Source: Auanema rhodensis | Taxonomy: Eukaryota > Animalia > Nematoda | Direction of reading: 5' to 3' | NCBI GenBank assembly: GCA_964057225.1 | Contig: OZ059895.1 | Coordinates: forward strand, 3,782,001 to 3,846,000 | Length of the DNA stretch: 64,000 nucleotides | Made by a program: the position numbers and the translations under genes | The notes under the pieces: generated by a model | Seen by the model: the letters and a program-made list of their open reading frames with translations, nothing else | Told to the model about the DNA's origin: nothing | Database searches by the model: none | Shown here: positions 35,338 through 55,800 of the stretch, one piece after another | How positions within the stretch are numbered: position 1 is the stretch's first letter | Layout of the letters: every line of letters begins with the position of its first letter

Positions 35338-35341
35338 AAAC
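35338..35341 (+). other. Target-site duplication AAAC (second copy at 46821-46824)
   Basis: The intact monomer reads TTTTTTAAACTTTGATT. The junctions read TTTTTT-AAAC|LTR and LTR|AAAC-TTTGATT. Confidence 0.95.
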
Positions 35342-35676
35342 CGTTCCGTTATGCTCTCGCATCTATCCTATAGACCAATGTAGTCTATAAGATGTGCGAT
35401 ACAGTGTTCCAGATGTAGCGGTATTAATAGAGCATATGGATAACATAAGACTCATGAAAAGAAAGGTTTATTCTACATAATGATTACAATAAGTTACGAT
35501 AAGAATTAAAGAGATATAAACTATAGGTGAGCTCTGAGGAGATGACAAGCCATCCTTAGTCATTCCATGAGACAGAACTAAAGTCTGAGTTCCGTATAAA
35601 GGGCGTGTCAGCTCCTCTCGTCTCTTGTCGTCTAGCTCTAACCCGCCTGCTACGTATTGATCATCCGAATGGAACG
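35342..35676 (-). repeat. 3' LTR (335 bp)
   Basis: Direct repeat of 46485-46820. Candidate minus-strand polyadenylation signal AATAAA at 35467-35472. Confidence 0.97.
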
Positions 35677-35688
35677 TGCCATTTTTTC
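35677..35688 (-). promoter_or_regulatory. Putative short, atypical polypurine tract
   Basis: Minus-strand GAAAAAATGGCA directly precedes the 3' LTR. The position is right, but the tract is short and interrupted by pyrimidines. Confidence 0.5.
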
Positions 35689-36402
35689 GAGTTTATGTCG
35701 CGTCCTCGCGACTATCAAAATGTGTGGCTTGTTTCAATCGTAGCAAGAGGTTTAGAGGTTTTACATGTTAAAATATATTGTTGTTGTTCAAATAATACAA
35801 AATTATACAATATTAACCTCAACAATATTGTCTAAAAAGGATTTAATAAGTTTTAAATAAAATAATACATGAGTATAAAGCAAAAACACAATCTTTTAAG
35901 AATACTAGAGCTATATTTTGTCAGCGAAAGTGCATGAAAGTAGCTTTTTGGGCACGACGCTGTATGTCTAACCAATATAGAGCAGAGTAGCGAGAGCTAA
36001 GTTATATTCTCAATGAAGCTAGGCTGTTTCTTCAGCTTTGAAAGAAAACATTATTTGTTTGGAATTATTAAAACAATCCCGTATAATTTCCAGAAATGAA
36101 TCATTAATTACTTGATGATGACTGTTGCTCAGCTTTGATTGCAATATAATGTCTCTCATCTTTCATTTCTTCGGGTTTTTAGGGGAAATTATTTGAGATT
36201 GGAGTAACTTTTATGATAATTTGTAGCTATTATTATATATATATTTTTTTTTCGATGTGCTTGAAACATGACTGCTCATTAAGTTATAGCTTACTGCTCA
36301 TCTATCTGTTGTTTGTGTTGGTAAAATTAATTTTTAGCTCTAGTTTCCTTTAAACGATTTTTATGCAAAATTTTTAACAATAGTGTAATCAATGTGGTTG
36401 TT

Positions 36403-37656
36403 TTATCTTCTTCTTGATGGTATCCAATTATGATCTGATGGGTCTTCTGAGTCAATTTCGGTGTCTAATTCTTCGTTATTGTTTCCGTGTATAACTTCGA
36501 TAATTTCGATGTCACTGTCGTCATCTGAGTCGCTGTTTCTAGCTTTGGAGCGAGTGTTGTGCGCTGCTCCACATGTTGAACTTCGATTGAAAAGTTTCAA
36601 GTTGTCTTTGTGTATATCTTGGAGTTTTCCAAAAGGATTCTTGATTTGTACCATTGATCCTTTTACTTTGATGACCTCAAAGGGTCCATCATAACATTTC
36701 CTCAGCTTTTGACCTATTTTATGTGACTTAATGGTCAACATAACTTGGTCTCCTTCACTGATGTCTCTTTCTTCAATTCGTTGTCTTGAATCGTGTTTCT
36801 TCTTTGCTTGTTGCTGATGTTTTTCCAAGTTATCTTGAATGATAGATTTTCTTTCTTGACGAAGTTGTTCCATGTTTTCTACATCAATGGATATTGTTCC
36901 TGATTCCGGTGTTTCAGGTGATAATTCTTTATCGAGTCTCATACGACTTTCTTTTCCGAATAAAGCTATATATGGTGATATTCCTGTTGTTGAGTGTGTT
37001 GTGGTGTTTAACGCAAAGGTGACTTTTGGCAAAAATAAGTCCCAATCAGTAACTTCTTCGTTCAAATAATGTGTTAATCCTTCTTCTAACGTCCTATGTA
37101 GTCTTTCCACTTGTCCGTTAGAGTTCTTCTGATGCGGGAGTGTTGGTTCATGTTTTATGCCGAGTTTATCACACATATTTTCGAATTTCTTTGATACAAA
37201 ATTGGAACCTCGATCTGTTATTAGTCGATTTGGAGGTCCATAAATGTATACAAAATTTCTGAGGAATCTGTCGATGACAACGTCCGTAACTATTGTAGGT
37301 ATAGCAATAGTTGTCGCCCATTTGGAAAAAGAGTCCTGGATTGTAAGAACGTAGTTGTTGTTTTTTTTTGATGTTGGGAAGGGTCCCATAATATCCATAT
37401 GTATTCTCTCAAATGGTTTAGATGGTATTTCGAATTGACCCATTGGCTGAACGGTCATAGCATGAGGGTCTTTCTTCCTTTGTGCGCATTTAACGCATTG
37501 TTTCACAAAAATTGCTATGTCCGTTTGCATATTTGTCCAGAAGAATCTTCGTAATATGGCTTCTTTCGTTTTATTAATTCCTTGATGTGCCCCGATTGCT
37601 GGGTCTTCATGAAATTCTTCGATGATCTTGCTGATCAGTTCGCTTTTGTGGTAAAA
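36403..37656 (-). CDS. Polyprotein segment 3: integrase (HHCC, D,D35E, GPF) with an acidic C-terminal tail
   Basis: Frame open from 37656 gives FHEDPAIGAH...CVKC. Catalytic motifs HMDIMGP and ITDRG-(35 aa)-VERL; also YDGPFEV. No chromodomain recognised. Confidence 0.95.
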   Translation of the reverse strand, partial: FYHKSELISKIIEEFHEDPAIGAHQGINKTKEAILRRFFWTNMQTDIAIFVKQCVKCAQRKKDPHAMTVQPMGQFEIPSKPFERIHMDIMGPFPTSKKNNNYVLTIQDSFSKWATTIAIPTIVTDVVIDRFLRNFVYIYGPPNRLITDRGSNFVSKKFENMCDKLGIKHEPTLPHQKNSNGQVERLHRTLEEGLTHYLNEEVTDWDLFLPKVTFALNTTTHSTTGISPYIALFGKESRMRLDKELSPETPESGTISIDVENMEQLRQERKSIIQDNLEKHQQQAKKKHDSRQRIEERDISEGDQVMLTIKSHKIGQKLRKCYDGPFEVIKVKGSMVQIKNPFGKLQDIHKDNLKLFNRSSTCGAAHNTRSKARNSDSDDDSDIEIIEVIHGNNNEELDTEIDSEDPSDHNWIPSRRR

Positions 37657-40600
37657 CTAAGGCTGGGTGTGGTCTTTTCGTGCTCGGTTTTGTGTACAGC
37701 ATGTTATCAATTACACAATAACGATCATTGGAGAGCATGTTTTTCTTTGTTCTGTATTCAATTTCGGCAATTGTCTTTTTGATCCAAGGTGTATTGCCTT
37801 GTATTTGTTTAATGTCTGGTATGTTAACAAAGTTAACCTGAGCAAGTTGAGGCTCTTTAACTTTCTTTTTCTTTTCTGGCTTTGGATCATTAGCTTCGTC
37901 TCCAATGTATCGTGAAAGAGCGTCACAGACTTTGTTTAGTCTACCTTCACGATATCTGATCTCAATGTTGTATTCCTGTATCACTAATTGAAATTTTGCT
38001 AGTCTTCCAAACAAATCTCTTCGTGTCATTAAGCTTGTTAATGGTCGGTGATCCGTAATGCATATTGCGTGTGATCCAAGTATATAAGTCCGAAACTGAG
38101 CAAGCGCGTATACTAATCCTAGGGCTTCGATCTCAATAGGAGGATAGTTTCGTTCGGCTTTAACTAATTTTCTACTTGCAAAAGCAATAGGATGTAAGTT
38201 TTTCAAAGGTTCATTCGGATCTTCAGGTTGTAACAGTACTGCTCCGATGGCTATATTGCTGCCATCGCTTTCAATTATGAAAATACGATCTGCTCTTGGT
38301 GGTTTCAGTACTGGTGCTTCCATTAATCTTTTCTTTAATTTTTCTAGCGCTTGTTGGCACTGGTCTGACCATTTGAAATCTGTGTCCAGTTTTGTGAGAT
38401 CATATAGAGGGCTTGCGATGTGAGCAAAGTCTTTAATGAATTTCCGAAAGAATCCTACCATTCCCAAAAATGCTCTAACTCCCGTAGGTGACTGTGGAGC
38501 AGGATAGTCTTGGATGGCGGAAACTTTCTTTGGATCAGGCTTAACTCCATCTCTTCCAACAATTAACCCAAGAAATTTGACTTCTGGTCTAGCAAATGAG
38601 CATTTCTTGAGCTTTATCTTCAATCCTAGTTCTTCAATTCTTTCGAGTACTTCTTCAATATCATATATGTGTTGTTCTGCATTATCTGATATAACAAGTA
38701 GATCGTCTAAGTAAACGAATAGTCTGCATTTGCATCTGCTTTGAAGATATCGTACCGCAGTTTGGAAGGTATGTGGAGCGCCACATAATCCCATAGGCAT
38801 CCTTCTGTATTGATACGTTCCCGTATTTGTTGTGAAGGCTGTTAAGGATCGGTCTGATTTCTTTAATGGTATTTGGAAAAATCCAGAAACTAAATCAAAA
38901 TTGGAAAAATATTTTGATCCAGCTGTCATATCAATAATGTCGGAGATATTAGGAATTACATATGTTTGCTTCCGTGTAACGTTGTTTAAAGCGCGGAAAT
39001 CAGTTACGAAACGAAATGTATCGTCCTTTTTCTTCACTAATACGACAGGACTATTGAACAGTGATGTTGATGGTTCGATTATTCCTTGTTGAAGCATTTC
39101 CTGTACTTGTCTTTCGATTTCCTCTTGTTTTCCTAAGGGTATACGAGTGATCCTAGGTTTAGGCATATCCATGTCAGTTCTTAATGGTATGCTGTGTTCT
39201 ACAGGGCCTTTGAACAGCCCTATATTTTTGTCTTCATTGAGGAAAGCCTTTTTTCGTCTGCGAATTATAGAACGTAAATGATCTTTAAGATTTTGTGTAA
39301 GATCAGCATCTTTTAGATCAAGTTCTTTCATAAAATCAGTTGGAAAAGTAGGTAATTTACTTTCCCAATCAGCTTCAGGTGGAATATAGTCTTGTTTTTG
39401 ATCAGTTGTGAAGATTTCATAGTCTGGCATGATTCCTATCTCAGCTTTAGTAATTACGTGTCCTGATGGTAATTCAATAGATTTGTTGGAGTTGTTTTTG
39501 AACGTGATATCAATGGAATTAACATCGCGAAATGCTGTATGGTATTTGGGTGTTAACATATTGTTATTATCTATCGAGAGCATCGCGAAAGAATCGTCTC
39601 TGATGGGTTTTTCTAATTGAACTTGTAGTGTACAAGTTTCGTTTGGAAGCATATCTCGCTGTTTTAAGTTAATCAGATTGACAGTTGTTGATGTTTTGCT
39701 GAGTCTTCCGTCAATTCCATTAGCTAACCGTACTACGCGGTTTCCAATTTCTAGTGTCCTTTTGTATGGTCTAAGTTTCATGCCAATGTTTTGACTGTCA
39801 AGTGTCTTCATGAAATCTAATCCAATTAATGCTGGTGAAGGGCAGTCTTCATCGTTGGATATATAGAATGTATGATCGATTTCATATCCGGCAATTTCGA
39901 CGGTTAGATCTATTGTACCGATGAATCGAAATTCTGATCCGTTTGCTGTTGTAGCACTTGATTTATTGTTCTTTACAAAGTCGTTTAAAGTCAAGTAATG
40001 TAGTGTTGATACTCTGATATAACTGATAGATGATCCTGAATCCCATAAGGTGAGGACTAATCTGTCATTAACAGTCATCCATAATAGTGGTAAAGATTGA
40101 TCTTTCCTTTTTGAAATTGAACAAACCAATGGTATTGCAATTGGTATATACGTCAGTATTGATGGGTAGTATTGCTTCATTATGTTTCTTGGAATGGGTT
40201 GATCAGGTTGAGTAACTAGCTCTAAGGTTTCTTCGTATGTAGGTGGGTTACTATTTCGATCCTTCAGTTCAATGTGCATGATTGGTATCGGAATTGATTT
40301 GAGGAAGTAGACCTTGATGATAAATGCTAGTATGATCACAATTATTATAACAGATGTGATTGCACCAATTGTAATTAGTGTTCGTTCGATTGTCCCTACC
40401 ATCGTATCAATGAATGAATTCCAAGTGTTTTTTGTGAATTCGTGTGCTTTAGATATGTAGTCACTACTCTTCTTTAAAACACTATAAGCGGCTGATATTT
40501 TAGGATCATTGTGAATTGTATGAAGTACATGATTTTGACGGATTGACGCTAAACTAGCACCATAAGCAATGGCTGTGGTCATGGAGTATACACGTGATGT

Positions 40601-42880
40601 TAAATTAGTGTAAAGGTGTGCTCCAGTGAATTTTAATGGTGTGATATTTTCGTGATGCAGTCCATCTCCCATGGATATGAGACTGACATCTACTGTGCCA
40701 TTGATTCCTTTCCATTCACCGTCTGCTGACCATACGTCTGTTGGTACGTGATCACAATTGATTTCTTTTCCGTGGGGTAGAAGATCTTTTGATCCTGGTG
40801 CTGCGAATAGTAATTGGCCTTCTTCGGTTAAAATTGGCGTTTCGAGATAACATGTATTGTTTACCGTGTGATTGTGATAAATAGTTTTTGTGAAAACTGT
40901 TGGGCAAACATGTACGTGTAATATCTCACTTCCAACAAAACGAGCTGCTATGTCTTCTCTTCCAAGGATAGTACGCATAGCGATTGTTGGTTCGATTTGT
41001 AAAATTGATCGCCATAGCTCTGGATATCTATTTTGGATCTCACATATTGATTCGTATGACTCTTTGAAATGTTTCTGTAGCTCGCTTTGAATCATTGTTG
41101 TGGCGTATTGCAAATGATCTTGTGCAATCTTGCTCGTAATGTTTTGGCGATACTGTTCTTCCGAGTCAATTTTCGAAGCTATGTAATGAGCTTGAGCCTG
41201 AACAGACTGTATTTCTTTTGCTGTTGGTGTTGATGAAGCTCTCTGTTTCCGAATCAATGTCGTGGGTAAGTATGTTATTTCGTCCATTATTGGAATTTGT
41301 TGATCTTTATAAGTGGCGTAGAGCTTTGTTGATGTTGGCGCCTGGGTAGTCGATATTGTCGCGCGTGCGGTAGTTGTTGCGGTTGTGTAGCTCTCTGTTA
41401 TTTTCGGCTCGGCTGTCGACGATGGCGCGCGCGCGGTAGTCGCTGCGGTTGCTTGAGGGCTTGTTATTGCATGCGGCTGCATTGCGGGATCTGATTCGAT
41501 GGTCGTCTTCCGATCGATTATGGGTTGGGCTGATGTTGCTGCCGCGCCGCCTGCAGCGACGCTCGGCGTACGCGTCGTGGTTTGCAGCGATTCAAGCTCG
41601 AGTTTCTCTGCCATTAGTCTCCTTAGGTGTTCTGGTGATATTCTACTTGAAGTATAAGGCAATTTCTTTTCAGCAAGTAGTGGCAAGAAAATTTTCAATA
41701 ATAAATCTTTAGAGATTTTACTAGGCTTGATGAGCTTAGGGTGTGGACCGATTGGTATTCCAAAATTATTTTTGATATCGTAAAACAGTTTATCAGTATT
41801 TTGTACAAATATTCGTGATGCAGGAAGATTAATAAATTTCATCTCATCAATGTCTGCTGCTGTTTTGTTTTTCCTAATTTTTATGAGAGTTTTAAGTTCG
41901 GTTACAAGATTAATTGTTTCTTGTATGAATTCGCTCTTTTGTGCTTCTTCATTTGTTAGTATCTTTTGTCGTATCGGTGGTAATTTCACAAAAGATTGTA
42001 ACACTTCTTGTCTAGATGGAACAGTGAGGTTTTCTTCGATTATGACTGGGGTATTAGCTAAATCAAGCGCAATACTTTCAGTTCTTTCACGATAAGTGCC
42101 TTCTTTGGTATGAAGAATGCGATCGAATTCAATAACAGTTAACCGATCAGATATTTGTTGAAGTAATTGTTTGGGTGTTAGATAAGATATTCCTGTCTTT
42201 GTTGCTAACGCCAGTTCTCTTTGTGCAACATATTGTAGGATTGCTTCATCTTTATCGCGAAAATCGTATTGTTTAAGAAAATGTCTTAAGGATTTATCAT
42301 AAATTTGGATTTTAAAGAAAAATTCAAATTTCTCGCGATTAGCAGTTATCCATTCCTTTAAAGAGTACGTGGGATCTGCCATTCGTCTTCCTTTGATTAA
42401 AGAGATAATCTGCGTAATGCCCGGATTGCTCATAATTGGTCTCAAAAAGGCATATGGGCATATGTGAAGCGTATGAGTCTCAAAATCTTCAACTTCCATT
42501 ACTCTATCTTGGTCTAAAGGGAATGAACATCCTGTAGCGATTGCGCGTTTTTGTCTTTTAAACGGCAATTTTCTAAACTCTCTTTCTACGAGGATAGTAA
42601 TGTTATTGTCATTTGGAAATTTGGGGAGTATGATGTAGTTCCCCGATGTTGTGTGAAATGCTGGTTGTCTAAAACACGAAGCGATAGGTTTTGGGGTTGG
42701 TTTGTTCGAAAGGATAAGAGCAGATTGTGTGCTCGGAATTAGGATAGTATCGCCGCTAATGATGGCTTCATATGTGTGCATATCTATGTAATTGCAACGG
42801 GAATCCGTAGTTTGTGGATCCCAAATAATTATTGATGTGTTTGATTCGCAGTTACCATGATGCGCACTGCCCTTCAGTGT
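37607..42880 (-). CDS. pol: Polyprotein segment 2: rest of gB-like Env, TM and tail, aspartic protease, reverse transcriptase, RNase H; ends at a frameshift at the start of integrase
   Basis: 1724-aa ORF from ATG 42781, with the frame open from 42880. Protease LWDSGS...LIGLDF, RT YLDD, RNase H ESDGS / EIEALG / TDHRPL / DALSR. Confidence 0.95.
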   Translation of the reverse strand, partial: TLKGSAHHGNCESNTSIIIWDPQTTDSRCNYIDMHTYEAIISGDTILIPSTQSALILSNKPTPKPIASCFRQPAFHTTSGNYIILPKFPNDNNITILVEREFRKLPFKRQKRAIATGCSFPLDQDRVMEVEDFETHTLHICPYAFLRPIMSNPGITQIISLIKGRRMADPTYSLKEWITANREKFEFFFKIQIYDKSLRHFLKQYDFRDKDEAILQYVAQRELALATKTGISYLTPKQLLQQISDRLTVIEFDRILHTKEGTYRERTESIALDLANTPVIIEENLTVPSRQEVLQSFVKLPPIRQKILTNEEAQKSEFIQETINLVTELKTLIKIRKNKTAADIDEMKFINLPASRIFVQNTDKLFYDIKNNFGIPIGPHPKLIKPSKISKDLLLKIFLPLLAEKKLPYTSSRISPEHLRRLMAEKLELESLQTTTRTPSVAAGGAAATSAQPIIDRKTTIESDPAMQPHAITSPQATAATTARAPSSTAEPKITESYTTATTTARATISTTQAPTSTKLYATYKDQQIPIMDEITYLPTTLIRKQRASSTPTAKEIQSVQAQAHYIASKIDSEEQYRQNITSKIAQDHLQYATTMIQSELQKHFKESYESICEIQNRYPELWRSILQIEPTIAMRTILGREDIAARFVGSEILHVHVCPTVFTKTIYHNHTVNNTCYLETPILTEEGQLLFAAPGSKDLLPHGKEINCDHVPTDVWSADGEWKGINGTVDVSLISMGDGLHHENITPLKFTGAHLYTNLTSRVYSMTTAIAYGASLASIRQNHVLHTIHNDPKISAAYSVLKKSSDYISKAHEFTKNTWNSFIDTMVGTIERTLITIGAITSVIIIVIILAFIIKVYFLKSIPIPIMHIELKDRNSNPPTYEETLELVTQPDQPIPRNIMKQYYPSILTYIPIAIPLVCSISKRKDQSLPLLWMTVNDRLVLTLWDSGSSISYIRVSTLHYLTLNDFVKNNKSSATTANGSEFRFIGTIDLTVEIAGYEIDHTFYISNDEDCPSPALIGLDFMKTLDSQNIGMKLRPYKRTLEIGNRVVRLANGIDGRLSKTSTTVNLINLKQRDMLPNETCTLQVQLEKPIRDDSFAMLSIDNNNMLTPKYHTAFRDVNSIDITFKNNSNKSIELPSGHVITKAEIGIMPDYEIFTTDQKQDYIPPEADWESKLPTFPTDFMKELDLKDADLTQNLKDHLRSIIRRRKKAFLNEDKNIGLFKGPVEHSIPLRTDMDMPKPRITRIPLGKQEEIERQVQEMLQQGIIEPSTSLFNSPVVLVKKKDDTFRFVTDFRALNNVTRKQTYVIPNISDIIDMTAGSKYFSNFDLVSGFFQIPLKKSDRSLTAFTTNTGTYQYRRMPMGLCGAPHTFQTAVRYLQSRCKCRLFVYLDDLLVISDNAEQHIYDIEEVLERIEELGLKIKLKKCSFARPEVKFLGLIVGRDGVKPDPKKVSAIQDYPAPQSPTGVRAFLGMVGFFRKFIKDFAHIASPLYDLTKLDTDFKWSDQCQQALEKLKKRLMEAPVLKPPRADRIFIIESDGSNIAIGAVLLQPEDPNEPLKNLHPIAFASRKLVKAERNYPPIEIEALGLVYALAQFRTYILGSHAICITDHRPLTSLMTRRDLFGRLAKFQLVIQEYNIEIRYREGRLNKVCDALSRYIGDEANDPKPEKKKKVKEPQLAQVNFVNIPDIKQIQGNTPWIKKTIAEIEYRTKKNMLSNDRYCVIDNMLYTKPSTKRPHPALVLPQKRTDQQDHRRIS
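37910..39200 (-). other. Reverse transcriptase and RNase H domains
   Basis: YLDD at 38702-38713; RNase H catalytic motifs at ~37910-38290. Domain limits are approximate. Confidence 0.95.
39780..40100 (-). other. Aspartic protease domain
   Basis: DSG active-site motif at 40034-40042 and downstream LIGLDF. Domain limits are approximate. Confidence 0.9.
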
Positions 42881-43409
42881 TTAGTAGTAAGTTTGAAAGG
42901 ATGGTATCGTCTGGCATGCGGGTCATAACACCCCGCTCCAGTACTAAACGCGACCGCTCCTCGCACTCGTCGCGGCTAAACGGTCGCGCCGGATCGAAGG
43001 AGGGTTCAGGGGTTGCTTGGGCAATACTATCGATTCTTTCTAGTTCCATATTATTCCACTTTCGATCGCGAATTGCCTGCCTGCATGACTGCACGCTTAT
43101 AGGCTCTATCCTATCGATTGTTTTGTTGCTGTCGCGAAGGAATAATAAATCGCGTACACACAGCCTGTGCACTTCCTTCGAGCAGCGCCACGCGTCCCAC
43201 TCGTGAGCTGTGTGATTGCGAGTGTATAGATGGACTTGTGTTTGGATCACGTGGTTTGCTTCGGTTAATTTGCATTTCTCTAATGTTGGAGGCATGAGTA
43301 GTGCTCCCCCTGTTGCTTTTGTGCATGCTTGGTAGCTTGACGCACAAGGTAGCAGTATTGCTGCTGCTAATGCCATTACAACAGTTAATGAGAGTGGTGA
43401 AAGAGAGAT
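40316..43409 (-). other. env: env region: class III (herpes gB / chuvirus G-like) fusion glycoprotein, signal peptide to TM anchor, ~1030 aa
   Basis: Signal peptide at 43335-43409, about 12 N-X-S/T sequons, furin-type RQKR (42545-42556), gB-like LQY....IQ..............CEIQN....LW.......P......GR...AR..G......C (41113-40904), CY motif, and TM LITIGAITSVIIIVIILAFII (40316-40378). Confidence 0.85.
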
Positions 43410-45059
43410 GGAGTTAACTCTTGAAGAGCTCCTATCTCTTCCTCTCGATTGGTTTCTTCGTTCTTTAAATTGTACTCGCCTTTGTCCATTTCTTCCTCCT
43501 TGATTGTTATATCGAGGATTATAATTATTTTGGTACCAATTAGTACCATTATTGCTGTTTTGACGCTCGTTATTTCTTCCAAAATTATTTGGACGGCGAT
43601 TATTTCCAAAATTATTATTACGTTGTTGGAAATTGTTATAATTTGAACGGTTTTTATTTGTTTGATAATTTTGATAATTTTGATTACCGCGCTGGTAACT
43701 TCGGTCAAAAGTTCTGTTATCTCTTCTCTCTTTATTGCGCGTAAAGGGAGCTAGTGCTTGGTTAACTGCATTCACTAGCATCGCCTGAGTGTCTGCCGTC
43801 TGGTTCAATATTGATTCTTCCCAGCGGGCAGCCTCAATCGCCTCAGCAAAGGTTTTGGGCCTTGCTCGGATCACTCCTGCCTTCAGAGTATTTTTAAGTC
43901 CTCTCAGGAAGGTTGATCTTAGTATGTGATCCTTATGTGGGTCATCACTGGCAAAAGCACTAAGGCTTATTGTTCGCAAAGCCTGAGCAAAGGCATCAAT
44001 CGAAAGATCCCCTTGACTAGTGTTTTGAAGGCTGATCAGTGCTGGGTCCTGATTATATTCAGGACAGAGCTTTGATGTTAAAGCTGCTAACAAATCATTC
44101 CATGAACCCGATGTTTTAAGGTGTTCAGGAGTTTGTTTGTATGCTTCTTCTGCCGCATCATTTTTAAGAAGCAACGGCAGAAGAGTCAACCTTTCAGGTA
44201 TCACTAGGCCAAGTGCATTAGCGAAGACATTAAATTTAGCGGTAAAGTCGCGGAAATTGCGGCTACCGTCATAAACAGGGCAGTAGGGTGATGTTAAAAC
44301 TTGGGCAATTGTTGTTTTCCCCGCTCCGGGTAAATTGGTTGCGGGCTCAGTCATTTTTTTCGGAACAGCTATTACTGTATGTGCAGATCTTGAACTTCCT
44401 GACGTAGAAGTAATATGCTCTGTTTGGTTATATTGGTTAGGTGTCGTCAATTCGTCTAATCTTGGACTATTGAGAATTGGGGTTGATGTTTGTGGGTTAT
44501 TTTTCAAAAGTTTTCTTTGCTCCGGTGAGGTGATTGGAGATAACGTATAGCGCGTGTATGTATTGGGTATTGTAGCAAGTCGCTGTGCTCGGCTAGATTT
44601 TGGGTTTGGGTCTTTGGGTGAGCGATTCAATAAATCAACGACTTTGTTTTTGAGAGATTGTAAGCCTGTTGTTGAAGGTGAACCAGTAGGTTCTTGACTT
44701 GAGAGAGAGAGAGAGATATCAGAATTATTTAGATTTTTATTATTTTTATTTTTATGTATATTGGAAGAGCGTACCTTTTCTTTCGTAGTGGTGTTCGGTG
44801 TCTGTTCGTCTATCACCAAGGGTCGCTCGTCGTCTCCAGATGGTATGTAGTCCGGATCACTAGAACGTTCTGAAGGAGAAAACGTACCTGCACGGGGCGT
44901 GTAAAATTTTTCCACGTTAGGCTTCTCCTCTGCTGTGTCTTCGTTGATGATGGCGACACTTTGCGCGCGAGTTCGGCTTCTGGTTACTGGAGCTGAGTCG
45001 CGGGGATCCGGGTTGGAGTGCGTACTGAGAGGTACTGCTGAGTTATACCTTCTCTCCAC
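42852..45059 (-). CDS. gag: Polyprotein segment 1: Gag (disordered N-terminal region, capsid, N/Q/R-rich nucleocapsid) fused in frame to an internal signal peptide and the N-terminal part of Env; ends at a frameshift
   Basis: Gypsy capsid-like motifs PVYDG..F.DF, LQNTSQGDLSIDAF and FLRGL...RPKTFAEAI (~43810-44290). Then hydrophobic LSLTVVMALAAAILLPCASS and a Cys-rich glycoprotein-like region. The annotated start is GTG; the first ATG is at 44354; the frame is open from 45101. Confidence 0.9.
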   Translation of the reverse strand: MERRYNSAVPLSTHSNPDPRDSAPVTRSRTRAQSVAIINEDTAEEKPNVEKFYTPRAGTFSPSERSSDPDYIPSGDDERPLVIDEQTPNTTTKEKVRSSNIHKNKNNKNLNNSDISLSLSSQEPTGSPSTTGLQSLKNKVVDLLNRSPKDPNPKSSRAQRLATIPNTYTRYTLSPITSPEQRKLLKNNPQTSTPILNSPRLDELTTPNQYNQTEHITSTSGSSRSAHTVIAVPKKMTEPATNLPGAGKTTIAQVLTSPYCPVYDGSRNFRDFTAKFNVFANALGLVIPERLTLLPLLLKNDAAEEAYKQTPEHLKTSGSWNDLLAALTSKLCPEYNQDPALISLQNTSQGDLSIDAFAQALRTISLSAFASDDPHKDHILRSTFLRGLKNTLKAGVIRARPKTFAEAIEAARWEESILNQTADTQAMLVNAVNQALAPFTRNKERRDNRTFDRSYQRGNQNYQNYQTNKNRSNYNNFQQRNNNFGNNRRPNNFGRNNERQNSNNGTNWYQNNYNPRYNNQGGRNGQRRVQFKERRNQSRGRDRSSSRVNSISLSPLSLTVVMALAAAILLPCASSYQACTKATGGALLMPPTLEKCKLTEANHVIQTQVHLYTRNHTAHEWDAWRCSKEVHRLCVRDLLFLRDSNKTIDRIEPISVQSCRQAIRDRKWNNMELERIDSIAQATPEPSFDPARPFSRDECEERSRLVLERGVMTRMPDDTILSNLLLNTEGQCASW

Positions 45060-46471
45060 CTTGTTAGGACTCTTGGTTTGAAAAAAACCTCGAGTGTCTG
45101 ATTACGTGTGGGATGATGGAATTTGAACGTAATTGGGTGGGTATGTACGTTTAGTTGTTGGTGGTAAGTTGGGAAAAGCTAGATTGAGACTGACAACTGG
45201 TTTGGTCAAGTCGGAAGGATAGGAATGAATCTAAGGTTCTGGCCATAACTTTAGATCCGAATTCTACCGTACTTTGAAATTGGACTTTGGTTATCTTGGT
45301 CTTTTGGGTCCAATTTGTATAGCATTTGCATTTTTCTTTTCTCTTTGCACGCATTATGGATGATTGCCTGGTCTCAATGGGCTTATTCCCTTCTCTTTTT
45401 TATAGAATTTTTTGATTTTTAGTCGCAAACTCCCTTAGGCATTCCAAAAAGTTGCATTAAAATTAGACTTTGGTAATCCATCACTCTATCCAAGAAGAAT
45501 TACTAGTCCCAATTGCATACTTAATTCGTTCGTTCATGGTTCAACGGGAAGTAAGGATCTTTTTTAAGAAATCTACCGTAGTCGTTTTGCAAACCAAAGA
45601 TCTCGTTTTATAATATTGAAGTTACATAGCTGACTAAAATTTACAAGAACTATACGAAATTATAAAAAGAATAAGGTGATTTGGAATTGAGTCTCATGTT
45701 TCTAAACAACAAAACGGTATGAGGAAGGTGACATATAGTATGGGGAGAAAATCCAACTAATATGCTTTAGTCAACTCGACCTGACGAATAAATTTAAATT
45801 GGGAGATCAGTTTGTAAGAATATCGCAGGATTTTTCGGACTATAGCGAATGTAAGTTATTGAATTAAACATCCTCTCACTTGTTGTGAGGTTTCCCGTAC
45901 GATTTTTAAGCGTTTTGTTATGTTTTTGGATGGTAAATGCTAAAAGTTGTCTGAACGATTTTAAACGCAAAATATAATAGTCCTTATCGCAAAATTATTT
46001 AAAATTCAAATTGGCATGCTTTTCATCCACAAAATTTAAGAAATAACTGGAGTTATTCTTTCCTCAAAGCCGAAATCAATCCTTAAAAGGAGAATGGTGT
46101 GGGTAATAATCAAAATATATATAAAATCTTTAGGTGAATCTGTTCACGAATTCAGCCTAAAGTCCTCATGTGGCTTCGAGGTCGGGTAACAGTATAATCA
46201 GATGTTAATAGCAAGGATATGTGACTTAGGTTCAGACATGACAAAATTGTGAACAACGGGATCAAGTAAAATAAATTCTTCCCAAAATGTATAATTTTAC
46301 TCTCTTATTATGAGAGTTCCTTGCATCTGTTCCCTATAACGATGTTGGCCCCTCCGTTTTGTGTTTTAGCGTGGAGAAGATGGCAATGGATAAGAGAAAG
46401 TTGAAAAGAAAATGAATATTGCAAGAGTGAATAAAATTTAAGAAAATAAGAGAAAGTAAAAAAACGTTCGA

Positions 46472-46484
46472 GGTGGAACCTCCA
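46472..46484 (-). promoter_or_regulatory. Primer-binding site, tRNA-Gln
   Basis: Minus-strand TGGAGGTTCCACC starts immediately after the 5' LTR. It is complementary to the metazoan tRNA-Gln 3' end (...GGUGGAACCU-CCA, recalled from memory). Confidence 0.88.
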
Positions 46485-46820
46485 CGTTCCGTTATGCTCT
46501 CGCATCTATCCTATAGACCAATGTAGTCTATAAGATGTGCGATACAGTGTTCCAGATGTAGCGGTATTAATAGAGCATAATGGATAACATAAGACTCATG
46601 AAAAGAAAGGTTTATTCTACATAATGATTACAATAAGTTACGATAAGAATTAAAGAGATATAAACTATAGGTGAGCTCTGAGGAGATGACAAGCCATCCT
46701 TAGTCATTCCATGAGACAGAACTAAAGTCTGAGTTCCGTATAAAGGGCGTGTCAGCTCCTCTCGTCTCTTGTCGTCTAGCTCTAACCCGCCTGCTACGTA
46801 TTGATCATCCGAATGGAACG
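46485..46820 (-). repeat. 5' LTR (336 bp), termini 5'-CGTTCC...GGAACG-3'
   Basis: Direct repeat of 35342-35676, identical by eye except one extra A (AGAGCATAATGG vs AGAGCATATGG). Abuts the PBS. Minus-strand AATAAA at 46611-46616. Confidence 0.97.
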
Positions 46821-49800
46821 AAACTTTGATTAAGAACTTTGATTTTTGTACACCCATAAATTACACGCAGCACAGGTTACCCTTAATTAATGAACTGACC
46901 GACTAATCAGACATGGATCTTTCCAAGTTCTGTTGCTTGAACGGATGTTTTCCTACGTAGGCTAGTAAAACATGCCCTTCAAAGCATCAGAACATGTGAC
47001 CACATTCCAATTTTTTTGTATCTATCTTGTAAAGATAGTAATATATCATATGTTGAACACTATGTTGGAAAGATTTTAATTCAGATTTTCTAACTTTTAT
47101 TCAGTTTGTTTTTTAAACTTTGATTAAGAACTTTGATTTTTGTACACCCATAAATTATACGCAGCACAGGTTACCCTTAAATAATGAACTGACCGACTAA
47201 TCAGACATGGATCTTTCCTAGTTCTGCTGCTTGAATGGATGTTTTCCTACGTAGGCTAGTAAAACATGCCCTTCAAAGCATCAGAACATGTGATCACATT
47301 CCAATTTTTTTGTATCTATCTTGTAAAGATAGTAATAAACTTTGATTTTTGTACACCCATAAATTATACACAGCACAGGTTACCCTTAAATAATGAACTG
47401 ACCGACTAATCAGACATGGATCTTTCCTAGTTCTGTTGCTTGAATGGATGTTTTCCTACGTAAGCTAGTAAAACATGCCCTTCAAAGCATCAGAACATGT
47501 GATCACATTCCAATTTTTTTGTATCTATCTTGTAAAGATAGTAATATATCATATGTTGAACACTATGTTGGAAAGATTTTAATTCAGATTTTCTAACTTT
47601 TAATCAGTTTGTTTTTTAAACTTTGATTAAGAACTTTGATTTTTGTACACCCATAAATTATACGCAGCACAGGTTACCCTTAAATAATGAACTGACCGAC
47701 TAATCAGACATGGATCTTTCCTAGTTCTGTTGCTTGAATGGATGTTTTCCTACGTAGGCTAGTAAAACATGCCCTTCAAAGCATCAGAACATGTGATCAC
47801 ATTCCAATTTTTTTGTATCTATCTTGTAAAGATAGTAATATATCATATGTTGAACACTATGTTAGAAAGATTTTAATTCAGATTTTCTAACTTTTAATCA
47901 GTTTGTTTTTTAAACTTTGATTAAGAACTTTGATTTTTGTACACCCATAAATTATACGCAGCACAGGTTACCCTTAAATAATGAACTGACCGACTAATCA
48001 GACATGGATCTTTCCTAGTTCTGTTGCTTGAATGGATGTTTTCCTACGTAGGCTAGTAAAACATGCCCTTCAAAGCATCAGAACATGTGATCACATTCCA
48101 ATTTTTTTGTATCTATCTTGTAAAGATAGTAATAAACTTTGATTTTTGTACACCCATAAATTACACGCAGCACAGGTTACCCTTAATTAATGAACTGACC
48201 GACTAATCAGACATGGATTTTTCCAAGTTCTGTTGCTTGAACGGATGTTTTCCTACGTAGGCTAGTAAAACATGCCCTTCAAAGCATCAGAACATGTGAC
48301 CACATTCCAATTTTTTTGTATCTATCTTGTAAAGATAGTAATATATCATATGTTGAACACTATGTTGGAAAGATTTTAATTCAGATTTTCTAACTTTTAT
48401 TCAGTTTGTTTTTTAAACTTTGATTAAGAACTTTGATTTTTGTACACCCATAAATTATACGCAGCACAGGTTACCCTTAAATAATGAACTGACCGACTAA
48501 TCAGACATGGATCTTTCCTAGTTCTGTTGCTTGAATGGATGTTTTCCTACGTAGGCTAGTAAAACATGCCCTTCAAAGCATCAGAACATGTGATCACATT
48601 CCAATTTTTTTGTATCTATCTTGTAAAGATAGTAATATATCATATGTTGAACACTATGTTGGAAAGATTTTAATTCAGATTTTCTAACTTTTAATCAGTT
48701 TGTTTTTTAAACTTTGATTAAGAACTTTGATTTTTGTACACCCATAAATTATACGCAGCACAGGTTACCCTTAAATAATGAACTGACCGACTAATCAGAC
48801 ATGGATCTTTCCTAGTTCTGTTGCTTGAATGGATGTTTTCCTACGTAGGCTAGTAAAACATGCCCTTCAAAGCATCAGAACATGTGATCACATTCCAATT
48901 TTTTTGTATCTATCTTGTAAAGATAGTAATATATCATATGTTGAACACTATGTTAGAAAGATTTTAATTCAGATTTTCTAACTTTTAATCAGTTTGTTTT
49001 TTAAACTTTGATTAAGAACTTTGATTTTTGTACACCCATAAATTATACGCAGCACAGGTTACCCTTAAATAATGAACTGACCGACTAATCAGACATGGAT
49101 CTTTCCTAGTTCTGTTGCTTGAATGGATGTTTTCCTACGTAGGCTAGTAAAACATGCCCTTCAAAGCATCAGAACATGTGATCACATTCCAATTTTTTTG
49201 TATCTATCTTGTAAAGATAGTAATATATCATATGTTGAACACTATGTTGGAAAGATTTTAATTCAGATTTTCTAACTTTTATTCAGTTTGTTTTTTAAAC
49301 TTTGATTAAAAACTTTGATTTTTGTACACCCATAAATCATACGCAGCACAGGTTACCCTTAAATAATGAACTGACCGACTAATCAGACATGGATCTTTCC
49401 TAGTTCTGTTGCTTGAATGGATGTTTTCCAACGTAGGCTAGTAAAACATGCCCTTCAAAGCATCAGAACATGTGATCACATTCCAATTTTTTTGTATCTA
49501 TCTTGTAAAGATAGTAATATATCATATGTTGAACACTATGTTGGAAAGATTTTAATTCAGATTTTCTAACTTTTATTCAGTTTGTTTTTTAAACTTTGAT
49601 TAAAAACTTTGATTTTTGTACACCCATAAATTATACGCAGCACAGGTTACCCTTAAATAATGAACTGACCGACTAATCAGACATGGATCTTTCCTAGTTC
49701 TGTTGCTTGAATGGATGTTTTCCAACGTAGGCTAGTAAAACATGCCCTTCAAAGCATCAGAACATGTGATCACATTCCAATTTTTTTGTATCTATCTTGT

Positions 49801-52800
49801 AAAGATAGTAATAAACTTTGATTTTTGTACACCCATAAATTATACGCAGCACAGGTTACCCTTAAATAATGAACTGACCGACTAATCAGACATGGATCTT
49901 TCCAAGTTCTGTTGCTTGAACGGATGTTTTCCTACGTAGGCTAGTAAAACATGCCCTTCAAAGCATCAGAACATGTGACCACATTCCAATTTTTTTGTAT
50001 CTATCTTGTAAAGATAGTAATATATCATATGTTGAACACTATGTCGGAAAGATTTTAATTCAGATTTTTTCAACTTTCACTCAGTTTGTTTTCTAAACTT
50101 TGATTAAGAACCTTGTTGTTTGTACACCCATAAATTATACGCAGCACAGGTTACCCTTAATTAATGAACTGACCGACTAATCAGACATGGATCTTTCCTA
50201 GTTCTGTTGCTTGAATGGATGTTTTCCTACGTAGGCTAGTAAAACATGCCCTTCAAAGCATCAGAACATGTGACCACATTCCAATTTTTTTGTATCTATC
50301 TTGTAAAGATAGTAATATATCATATGTTGAACACTATGTCGGAAAGATTTTAATTCAGATTTTTTCAACTTTCACTCAGTTTGTTTTCTAAACTTTGATT
50401 AAGAACCTTGTTGTTTGTACACCCATAAATTATACGCAGCACAGGTTACCCTTAATTAATGAACTGACCGACTAATCAGACATGGATCTTTCCTAGTTCT
50501 GTTGCTTGAATGGATGTTTTCCTACGTAGGCTAGTAAAACATGCCCTTCAAAGCATCAGAACATGTGACCACATTCTAATTTTTTTGTATCTATCTTGTA
50601 AAGATAGTAATATATCATATGTTGAACACTATGTTGGAAAGATTTTAATTCAGATTTTCTCAACTTTCACTCAGTTTGTTTTCTAAACTTTGATTGAGAA
50701 CTTTGATTTTTGTACACCCATAAATTATACGCAGCACAGGTTACCCTTAAATAATGAACTGACCGACTAATCAGACATGGATCTTTCCAAGTTCTGTTGC
50801 TTGAACGGATGTTTTCCTACGTAGGCTAGTAAAACATGCCCTTCAAAGCATCAGAACATGTGACCACATTCCAATTTTTTTGTATCTATCTTGTAAAGAT
50901 AGTAATATATCATATGTTGAACACTAAGTTGGAAAGATTTTAATTCAGATTTTTTCAACTTTCACTCAGTTTGTTTTCTAAACTTTGATTAAGAACCTTG
51001 TTGTTTGTACACCCATAAAATATACGCAGCACAGGTTACCCTTAAATAATGAACTGACCGACTAATCAGACATGGATCTTCCCAAGTTCTGTTGCTTGAA
51101 TGGATGTTTTCCTACGTAGGCTAGTAAAACATGCCTTTCAAAGCATCAGAACATGTGATCACATTCCAATTTTTTTGTATCTATCTTGTAAAGATAGTAA
51201 TATATCATATGTTGAACACTATGTTGGAAAGATTTTAATTCAGATTTTTTCATCTTTCACTCAGTTTGTTTTCTAAACTTTGATTAAGAACCTTGTTGTT
51301 TGTACACGCATAAGATATACGCAGCACAGGTTACCCTTAATTAATGAACTGACCGACTAATCAGACATGGATCTTTCCTAGTTCTGTTGCTTGAATGGAT
51401 GTTTTCCAACGTAGGCTAGTAAAACATGCCCTTCAAAGCATCAGAACATGTGATCACATTCCAATTTTTTTGTATCTATCTTGTAAAGATAGTAATATAT
51501 CATATGTTGAACACTATGTTGGAAAGATTTTAATTCAGATTTTCTAACTTTTATTCAGTTTGTTTTTTAAACTTTGATTAAAAACTTTGATTTTTGTACA
51601 CCCATAAATTATACGCAGCACAGGTTACCCTTAAATAATGAACTGACCGACTAATCAGACATGGATCTTTCCTAGTTCTGTTGCTTGAATGGATGTTTTC
51701 CAACGTAGGCTAGTAAAACATGCCCTTCAAAGCATCAGAACATGTGATCACATTCCAATTTTTTTGTATCTATCTTGTAAAGATAGTAATAAACTTTGAT
51801 TTTTGTACACCCATAAATTATACGCAGCACAGGTTACCCTTAAATAATGAACTGACCGACTAATCAGACATGGATCTTTCCAAGTTCTGTTGCTTGAACG
51901 GATGTTTTCCTACGTAGGCTAGTAAAACATGCCCTTCAAAGCATCAGAACATGTGACCACATTCCAATTTTTTTGTATCTATCTTGTAAAGATAGTAATA
52001 TATCATATGTTGAACACTATGTCGGAAAGATTTTAATTCAGATTTTTTCAACTTTTATTCAGTTTGTTTTTTAAACTTTGATTAAGAACTTTGATTTTTG
52101 TACACCCATAAATTATACGCAGCACAGGTTACCCTTAAATAATGAACTGACCGACTAATCAGACATGGATCTTTCCTAGTTCTGTTGCTTGAATGGATGT
52201 TTTCCAACGTAGGCTAGTAAAACATGCCCTTCAAAGCATCAGAACATGTGATCATATTCCAATTTTTTTGTATCTATCTTGTAAAGATAGTAATAAACTT
52301 TGATTTTTGTACACCCATAAATTATACGCAGCACAGGTTACCCTTAAATAATGAACTGACCGACTGATCAGACATGGATCTTTCCTAGTTCTGTTGCTTG
52401 AATGGATGTTTTCCTACGTAGGCTAGTAAAACATGCCCTTCAAAGCATCAGAACATGTGATCACATTCCAATTTTTTTGTATCTATCTTGTAAAGATAGT
52501 AATATATCATATGTTGAACACTATGTTGGAAAGATTTTAATTCAGATTTTCTAACTTTTATTCAGTTTGTTTTTTAAACTTTGATTAAGAACTTTGATTT
52601 TTGTACACCCATAAATTACACGCAGCACAGGTTACCCTTAAATAATGAACTGACCGACTAATCAGACATGGATCTTTCCTAGTTCTGTTGCTTGAATGGA
52701 TGTTTTCCTACGTAGGCTAGTAAAACATGCCCTTCAAAGCATCAGAACATGTGACCACATTCTAATTTTTTTGTATCTATCTTGTAAAGATAGTAATATA

Positions 52801-55800
52801 TCATATGTTGAACACTATGTTGGAAAGATTTTAATTCAGATTTTTTCAACTTTCACTCAGTTTGTTTTCTAAACTTTGATTGAGAACTTTGATTTTTGTA
52901 CACCCATAAATTATACGCAGCACAGGTTACCCTTAAATAATGAACTGACCGACTAATCAGACATGGATCTTTCCAAGTTCTGTTGCTTGAACGGATGTTT
53001 TCCTACGTAGGCTAGTAAAACATGCCCTTCAAAGCATCAGAACATGTGACCACATTCCAATTTTTTTGTATCTATCTTGTAAAGATAGTAATATATCATA
53101 TGTTGAACACTAAGTTGGAAAGATTTTAATTCAGATTTTTTCAACTTTCACTCAGTTTGTTTTCTAAACTTTGATTAAGAACCTTGTTGTTTGTACACCC
53201 ATAAAATATACGCAGCACAGGTTACCCTTAAATAATGAACTGACCGACTAATCAGACATGGATCTTCCCAAGTTCTGTTGCTTGAATGGATGTTTTCCTA
53301 CGTAGGCTAGTAAAACATGCCCTTCAAAGCATCAGAACATGTGATCACATTCCAATTTTTTTGTATCTATCTTGTAAAGATAGTAATAAACTTTGATTTT
53401 TGTACACCCATAAATTATACGCAGCACAGGTTACCCTTAAATAATGAACTGACCGACTAATCAGACATGGATCTTTCCAAGTTCTGTTGCTTGAACGGAT
53501 GTTTTCCTACGTAGGCTAGTAAAACATGCCCTTCAAAGCATCAGAACATGTGATCACATTCCAATTTTTTTGTATCTATCTTGTAAAGATAGTAATATAT
53601 CATATGTTGAACACTATGTTGGAAAGATTTTAATTCAGATTTTCTAACTTTTATTCAGTTTGTTTTTTAAACTTTGATTAAGAACTTTCATTTTTGTACA
53701 CCCATAAATTATACGCAGCACAGGTTACCCTTAATTAATGAACTGACCGACTAATCAGACATGGATCTTTCCAAGTTCTGTTGCTTGAACGGATGTTTTC
53801 CTACGTAGGCTAGTAAAACATGCCCTTCAAAGCATCAGAACATGTGACCACATTCCAATTTTTTTGTATCTATCTTGTAAAGATAGTAATATATCATATG
53901 TTGAACACTAAGTTGGAAAGATTTTAATTCAGATTTTTTCAACTTTCACTCAGTTTGTTTTCTAAACTTTGATTAAGAACCTTGTTGTTTGTACACCCAT
54001 AAAATATACGCAGCACAGGTTACCCTTAAATAATGAACTGACCGACTAATCAGACATGGATCTTCCCAAGTTCTGTTGCTTGAATGGATGTTTTCCTACG
54101 TAGGCTAGTAAAACATGCCCTTCAAAGCATCAGAACATGTGATCACATTCCAATTTTTTTGTATCTATCTTGTAAAGATAGTAATAAACTTTGATTTTTG
54201 TACACCCATAAATTATACGCAGCACAGGTTACCCTTAAATAATGAACTGACCGACTAATCAGACATGGATCTTTCCAAGTTCTGTTGCTTGAACGGATGT
54301 TTTCCTACGTAGGCTAGTAAAACATGCCCTTCAAAGCATCAGAACATGTGATCACATTCCAATTTTTTTGTATCTATCTTGTAAAGATAGTAATATATCA
54401 TATGTTGAACACTATGTTGGAAAGATTTTAATTCAGATTTTCTAACTTTTATTCAGTTTGTTTTTTAAACTTTGATTAAGAACTTTCATTTTTGTACACC
54501 CATAAATTATACGCAGCACAGGTTACCCTTAATTAATGAACTGACCGACTAATCAGACATGGATCTTTCCAAGTTCTGTTGCTTGAACGGATGTTTTCCT
54601 ACGTAGGCTAGTAAAACATGCCCTTCAAAGCATCAGAACATGTGACCACATTCCAATTTTTTTGTATCTATCTTGTAAAGATAGTAATATATCATATGTT
54701 GAACACTATGTTGGAAAGATTTTAATTCAGATTTTCTAACTTTTATTCAGTTTGTTTTTTAAACTTTGATTAAGAACTTTGATTTTTGTACACCCATAAA
54801 TTATACGCAGCACAGGTTACCCTTAAATAATGAACTGACCGACTAATCAGACATGGATCTTTCCTAGTTCTGTTGCTTGAATGGATGTTTTCCTACGTAG
54901 GCTAGTAAAACATGCCCTTCAAAGCATCAGAACATGTGATCACATTCCAATTTTTTTGTATCTATCTTGTAAAGATAGTAATAAACTTTGATTTTTGTAC
55001 ACCCATAAATCATACGCAGCACAGGTTACTCTTAAATAATGAACTGACCGACTTATCAGACATGGATCTTTCCTAGTTCTGTTGCTTGAATGGATGTTTT
55101 CCTACGTAGGCTAGTAAAACATGCCCTTCAAAGCATCAGAACATGTGATCACATTCCAATTTTTTTGTATCTATCTTGTAAAGATAGTAATATATCATAT
55201 GTTGAACACTATGTTGGAAAGATTTTAATTCAGATTTTTTCAACTTTCACTCAGTTTGTTTTCTAAACTTTGATTAAGAACTTTGATTTTTGTACACCCA
55301 TAAATTATACGCAGCACAGGTTACCCTTAAATAATGAACTGACCGACTAATCAGACATGGATCTTTCCTAGTTCTGTTGCTTGAACGGATGTTTTCCTAC
55401 GTAGGCTAGTAAAACATGCCCTTCAAAGCATCTGAACATGTGATCACATTCCAATTTTTTTGTATCTATCTTGTAAAGATAGTAATATATCATATGTTGA
55501 ACACTATGTTGGAAAGATTTTAATTCAGATTTTTTCAACTTTCACTCAGTTTGTTTTCTAAACTTTGATTAAGAACTTCGATTTTTGTACACCCATAAAT
55601 TATACGCAGCACAGGTTACCCTTAAATAATGAACTGACCGACTAATCAGACATGGATCTTTCCTAGTTCTGTTGCTTGAATGGATGTTTTCCTACGTAGG
55701 CTAGTAAAACATGCCCTTCAAAGCATCAGAACATGTGATCACATTCCAATTTTTTTGTATCTATCTTGTAAAGATAGTAATAAACTTTGATTTTTGTACA

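Follow-up and report, generated by a model that had tools for sequence, protein, structure and literature searches.

A young Ty3/gypsy element of Auanema rhodensis with a gB-like envelope between Gag and Pol, from a nematode family that probably makes one membrane-threading precursor

Insect errantiviruses such as gypsy and ZAM carry an F-type env as a separate open reading frame (ORF) after pol, whereas the element described here has a gB-type Env ahead of the protease (PR). This second gene order, GAG-ENV-POL, has been reported with a gB-type Env in elements of nematodes, bryozoans and flatworms (Chary and Hayashi, eLife 2026, PMC13524379). In excerpts of that survey, nematode GAG-ENV-POL elements with an HSV/gB-type ENV are called 'ancient errantiviruses', GAG-ENV-POL elements are stated not to be monophyletic, and Sacco et al. 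2022 (J Gen Virol), whose title speaks of glycoprotein capture by a metavirus, is cited for nematode ERVs with env and pol flipped. 'Nematoda' occurs 72 times in the survey's element table, twice per row in the 30 rows examined, all of them gB-type. The excerpted 2019 report on the planarian giant gypsy element Burro/GYPSM1 (PMC6431247) places env in frame between gag and pol within one polyprotein and calls this the first such case; Burro/GYPSM1 differs from our element in its ~5,000-aa ORF, CCHC knuckles, cargo domains and flatworm host. Atlas virus, a nematode belpaovirus, makes one 2,828-aa polyprotein of Gag, Pol and Env according to excerpts of a preprint (bioRxiv 10.64898/2026.03.22.711591), but there Env comes last and is phlebovirus-like class II, and Atlas virus belongs to a different superfamily.

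We analyzed a 64,000-nt stretch of A. rhodensis contig OZ059895.1 (assembly GCA_964057225.1, positions 3,782,001 to 3,846,000, forward strand), hereafter the window. Nearly the whole window is a satellite array with units of 294 and 209 bp, and its sole interruption is an 11.5-kb Ty3/gypsy element on the minus strand, delimited as follows.

35338-46824, minus strand: whole element including long terminal repeats (LTRs) and target-site duplications
46821..46824, unstranded: 4-bp target-site duplication, upstream copy, in satellite DNA
46485..46820, minus strand: 5' LTR, 336 bp, with 6-bp terminal inverted repeats
46473..46484, minus strand: primer binding site, tRNA-Gln-type, directly adjoining the 5' LTR
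35342..35676, minus strand: 3' LTR, 335 bp
35338..35341, unstranded: 4-bp target-site duplication, downstream copy

The LTRs, which end in 6-bp inverted repeats and not in TG...CA, are identical at 335/336 positions; this near-identity and the 4-bp duplication point to a young insertion. Assignment to Ty3/gypsy follows from the LTRs, primer binding site and target-site duplication together with a gypsy-type Gag and the Pol order PR, reverse transcriptase (RT), RNase H, integrase. All 12 bases of the primer site (12/12) are shared with the tRNA-Gln-type site of two Caenorhabditis GAG-ENV-POL elements, Clat_errantivirus_4 and Ctro_errantivirus_1, in the excerpts of PMC13524379, and the elements described there are like ours in their Ty3/gypsy Pol, gB-type Env between gag and pol, and short LTRs. 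The survey's genome table, as excerpted, records ENV-POL matches in two Auanema assemblies and in Heterorhabditis; Auanema is named in that table only and not in the element table. The initial annotation of this DNA had presented the layout as a different assembly logic, while noting that similar layouts may already be catalogued in nematodes. Its novelty is not supported: the layout is already catalogued, having been published for nematodes, bryozoans and flatworms in the excerpted sources (PMC13524379; PMC6431247), and this copy is one more young member, of a rhabditid-type lineage. Our analysis extends that annotation by the full extent of the element (35338-46824), the gB class of its envelope and its insertion in a satellite array. 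The excerpted survey text nowhere uses 'single ORF', 'fused' or 'polyprotein', and its passages do not refer to protease sites, late domains or a 320-aa insert; to the published picture we add putative [VI]N-x-[VIL] sites before the signal and in the linker, late-domain-like motifs and an ~320-aa Auanema env insert, which we infer from the sequences.

The window contains three ORFs of at least 200 aa, all on the minus strand and all within the element. Their coding content, apart from the Env ectodomain, is given below.

42852..45101, minus strand: ORF1, 749 aa between stops, with its first Met at 44354; Gag, signal and first part of Env
37607..42880, minus strand: ORF2, 1757 aa; rest of Env, transmembrane (TM) helix, linker, PR, RT and RNase H
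36403..37656, minus strand: ORF3, 417 aa; integrase (H2C2, rve, SH3-like)
43797..44168, minus strand: Gag capsid domain (Retrotrans_gag, Ty3_capsid; Retrotrans_gag E 2.8e-5)
43422..43739, minus strand: Asn/Arg/Gln-rich stretch in the nucleocapsid position
43335..43394, minus strand: internal signal-like hydrophobic helix (hydropathy)
40316..40375, minus strand: predicted TM helix (hydropathy)
40079..40315, minus strand: predicted cytosolic tail plus linker leading to PR (~80 aa)
39806..40078, minus strand: aspartic protease
38561..39037, minus strand: RT core (Pfam RVT_1 span)
37970..38371, minus strand: RNase H
42852..42880, minus strand: frame break 1, within the env ectodomain
37607..37656, minus strand: frame break 2, at the beginning of integrase

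In the window's own DNA, the reading frame continues across both the Gag-to-Env junction (ORF1) and the Env-to-Pol junction (ORF2). ORF1 has one hydrophobic peak (aa 570-588, KD 2.18), which is followed by Cys-rich sequence with no stop between them; the Asn/Arg/Gln-rich stretch ahead of it contains no Cys or His and hence no zinc knuckle. ORF2 has one strong hydrophobic peak (aa 836-855, KD 2.97), after which PR, RT and RNase H continue in the same frame. The initial annotation had read Gag as running without a stop into a signal-like helix and a Cys-rich ectodomain, and the ectodomain's TM helix as running in frame into PR-RT-RNase H; both readings hold. Its estimate of a ~2650-2900-aa precursor agrees with the lengths that we obtained: 2,649 codons if counted from the first Met, 2,898 if counted between stops.

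As assembled, this copy is unable to make the whole precursor, since the frame changes twice. Relatives are continuous at both places: ORF1 and ORF2 line up head to tail along a single 1,666-aa Auanema protein, meeting at its residue 339, and this protein holds the end of Gag, the signal, Env, TM helix, PR and the start of RT in one chain, while a 2,580-aa chain is matched first by ORF2 and then by ORF3. We found no X XXY YYZ, Ty1-type or Ty3-type shift motif near either break. Because relatives are continuous across the breaks and no shift motif lies nearby, both breaks are probably specific to this copy or to the assembly. We also compared the window with contigs from 4 of the 14 listed DNA runs. 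Contigs ~99.5% identical to it bridge break 1 in 4/4 runs, each with small gaps relative to the window, and break 2 is fully bridged in 3/4 runs, again by contigs with small gaps; the output does not place these gaps, three listed contigs away from the breaks are gapped too, and the gaps are thus supporting and not decisive. Three ORFs with short overlaps could also be read as the result of two programmed frame changes yielding three separately tuned products. Both changes fall inside domains, though, and the continuous relatives, the missing shift motifs and the gapped bridging contigs all speak against this reading, which we consider extremely improbable; programmed frameshifting was rejected as an account of the breaks. 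The excerpted survey included elements with intact, uninterrupted ORFs (PMC13524379), whereas the window copy is broken, a difference that concerns the state of this copy and not the family.

To place the element among its relatives, we built a quick RT tree from the window and 118 of 121 search matches, leaving out three whose RT core was incomplete. Ranked by identity, the top RT matches (55-69%) come from Auanema, Heterorhabditis, Caenorhabditis and Diploscapter, and by themselves point to a rhabditid nematode as the likely host. The window groups with two Auanema proteins (SH-aLRT 97), and this group falls within a clade of 40 rows (SH-aLRT 100) whose named members are all nematodes, from eight genera. 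Env occupies the same place in 30/40 rows of this clade, with signal, cysteines and TM helix kept at 20-30% identity. Among 268 proteins, env lies ahead of RT in 64/64 of those that match both queries, and 18 of these also match Gag upstream. In a Pfam scan of 21 long proteins chosen from the 121, env matches lay ahead of PR or RT in 20/21, and 8/21 had Gag, Env, PR, RT and integrase in one chain, many relatives being gene models that could conceal small introns. The abstract of Sacco et al. reportedly describes a continuous gag-env-pro-pol ORF in nematode endogenous retroviruses. Searching longer proteins with the Gag-signal-Env part, a weak test, gave no match, and a DNA search for a continuous relative returned three loci with 39-40% identity over Pol only, none of them the query's contig.

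These comparisons bear on whether env is a separate insertion or a captured passenger without a role in particle formation. In favour of a passenger, ten of the 40 clade rows lack an env match, but several rows without env have RT too near the start to hold one. Conservation of env position and features across eight nematode genera at such low identity runs counter to a passenger, as does the same gene order published across nematodes in the excerpts of PMC13524379, and we regard a passenger env as very unlikely. The single Gag-Env-Pol precursor with an internal signal and stop-transfer helix proposed in the initial annotation is supported by the element's sequence and by its relatives. We consider it likely that the family makes one Gag-Env-Pol precursor threaded through the ER membrane, then probably cut by viral and host proteases; the element itself is a recent Ty3/gypsy LTR insertion of the nematode GAG-ENV-POL kind.

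The Env ectodomain, interrupted by frame break 1, comprises the following parts.

42861..43334, minus strand: N-terminal part of the Env ectodomain, with 5 Cys invariant across a 10-sequence alignment
42545..42556, minus strand: furin-type site R-x-K-R
41591..42544, minus strand: ~320-aa Env insert, predicted helical
41246..41578, minus strand: Thr/Ser/Pro-rich mucin-like stretch
40376..41203, minus strand: gB-like C-terminal ectodomain with long helix, beta crown and membrane-proximal helices

The C-terminal ectodomain identifies the fusion protein class. ORF2 matches Pfam Monjiviricetes_fusion (3e-12) and, under Pfam's curated cut-off, Glycoprotein_B (7.5e-8), and a profile built from 42 sequences of this region matches herpesvirus gB chains with E about 1e-10. 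Its structure model (pLDDT 80.7) has a long helix and a beta-rich crown as in gB, and every row listed by Foldseek is a gB (E 1e-4 to 1e-3), with low TM-scores of ~0.3. By profile and predicted fold, Env is gB-like, class III. A PDB sequence search with the N-terminal env part gave no match. The ~320-aa insert is present in 4/268 proteins, all four named Auanema sp. Its model has a pLDDT of 49; Atlas matches at 0.91-0.92 are unnamed, and recognition is below threshold. The insert has no match among viral folds at E 0.001, and against PDB structures the best Z is 4.5, not significant, among death-domain and generic helical rows.

We judged topology by hydropathy and the positive-inside rule. 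Lys and Arg are commoner after the TM helix than before it in 18/22 proteins and rarer in 0/22, consistent with a cytosolic linker and Pol; for the window's own helix the difference is slight (1 before vs 2 after). In eight relatives belonging to the window's subclade, a third hydrophobic stretch, rich in Pro (KD 1.6-2.1), lies just ahead of PR. If this stretch crossed the membrane, the protease would be lumenal, which counts against a simple topology.

We looked at two kinds of short motif. The window has [VI]N-x-[VIL] at the capsid end, at 43418 ahead of the signal-like helix, and near the RNase H-integrase boundary; its linker has a variant of this motif, the strict form being absent, and also the following.

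40235-40246, minus strand: PPxY motif (PPTY) in the linker
40168, minus strand: YPx(n)L-like motif in the linker

Because the motifs were defined after inspecting the sequences and the relatives are not independent, the counts overstate significance: [VI]N-x-[VIL] lies just ahead of the signal in 12 of the 14 proteins whose signal peak could be detected (0.8 expected), the TM-PR linker has it in 21/22 proteins (4.2 expected; 0/2000 shuffles as high), and linkers contain PPxY or P[ST]AP in 6/22 proteins (shuffle mean 0.7), or any late-domain-like motif including YPx(n)L in 7/22 (shuffle mean 1.9), with none in 15/22. The [VI]N-x-[VIL] motif also precedes PR in 11/34 other RT matches and is therefore not specific to the GAG-ENV-POL layout. 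These motifs are likely cut sites of the viral protease, and the presence of conserved motifs resembling protease sites on both cytosolic sides suggests that Gag and Pol are cut free. PPxY, P[ST]AP and YPx(n)L resemble retroviral late domains, and we class the linker motifs as putatively late-domain-like. Our literature search, which did not cover Sacco et al. 2022, found no account of processing sites or late domains in the nematode GAG-ENV-POL group.

Flavivirus and alphavirus structural polyproteins rely on a viral protease that frees the capsid, an internal signal, signal peptidase and furin. The route that we propose for the nematode precursor resembles theirs by analogy only, with no homology expected. 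Gag would be made in the cytosol, and the first helix would act as an internal signal directing Env into the lumen, to be cut there by signal peptidase and furin. The second helix would stop transfer, and Pol would emerge in the cytosol. The viral protease would then release Gag and Pol by cutting at [VI]N-x-[VIL] ahead of the signal and within the tail. Budding would draw on ESCRT, recruited by the late-domain-like motifs of the tail linker. As Gag and Pol would be freed by the viral protease, Pol is probably not tethered for long.

Gag is usually in excess and capsids normally need it, so a 1:1:1 ratio of Gag, Env and Pol fits poorly. In a rival reading, the DNA is one long frame while most Gag is made without Env-Pol, by splicing, by premature polyadenylation or through supply in trans by sister copies that carry deletions, leaving the full precursor minor and the ratio far from 1:1:1. 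Besides the general need for excess Gag, this reading draws on joints that delete env-pol yet keep gag in 4/4 DNA runs and on a contig depth that, when summed, is several times as high over gag as over env-pol, depth here being no measure of copy number. Against it, the deletion joints lack GT-AG on the sense strand, and nowhere does that strand of the element contain TTTCAG, the canonical nematode splice acceptor. We view a minor full precursor as possible, if somewhat doubtful. Deletion copies that retain gag could supply Gag in trans. The joints themselves were rejected as splice products, not being GT-AG. A minor full precursor is compatible with the single-precursor explanation.

For the origin of the single precursor we offer a more tentative scheme, which we hold to be rather unlikely as a whole. 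Env would have entered an ancestral gag-pol gene between its nucleocapsid and a p6-like spacer, so that a protease site remained at either end of the insertion. The signal for budding would thus sit on the tail of Env and not on Gag, tying ESCRT budding to the presence of envelope; the 320-aa domain of the Auanema lineage at the furin loop would be a swapped-in attachment module; and the elements would be infectious nematode retroviruses built by flavivirus-like processing. The motifs give specific, testable cut sites and budding signals for the processing and budding of such a precursor, and the Caenorhabditis relatives offer tractable hosts. Enveloped transfer, if it occurs, would matter for the question of how nematode retroelements pass between soma and germ line.

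Four long proteins (P0216, P0235, P0249 and P0259) have an env match near the C-terminus and no match to the RT query; they may be canonical-order elements.

The element lies on the minus strand and is embedded in satellite DNA; further features of the window are as follows:

1-35337 and 46825-64000: satellite array, the rest of the window outside the element
35677-36402 (minus strand): trailer, a long untranslated stretch of 0.7 kb
40120-40170 (minus strand): proline-rich hydrophobic stretch shortly ahead of the protease
45102-46472 (minus strand): leader, a long untranslated stretch of about 1.4 kb
36838/43246, 36596/42480 and 42557/44775: deletion joints, found in contigs of DNA runs

The array is homogeneous and has a GC content of 33%. 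Units of 294 bp and 209 bp are interspersed in it, with some 198 copies among those listed for the window, and insertion of the element split one unit. Contigs from three of the four DNA runs compared join the two flanks (35337/46821). These contigs represent either an empty site or other satellite units, and they cannot show insertion polymorphism because the surroundings are satellite.

All four runs contain deletion joints within the element, and these joints point to non-autonomous derivatives. One joint removes env-pol and retains gag plus the signal, and 4-bp microhomology is present at one joint; none of the joints matches GT-AG.

The sense strand of the leader holds a single Met-started ORF longer than 40 aa (67 aa). 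The first Met of ORF1, which encodes Gag and the start of Env, is preceded by 249 open codons (44355-45101) enriched in Ser, Thr, Pro and Asn. The hydrophobic stretch before the protease is conserved within the subclade of this element.

Outside the nematode clade of the RT tree, we found a 3,036-aa relative (P0055) with a strong Pfam match to Monjiviricetes fusion protein (E = 2e-86) upstream of PR-RT-IN. P0055 apparently represents a separate lineage with env before pol.
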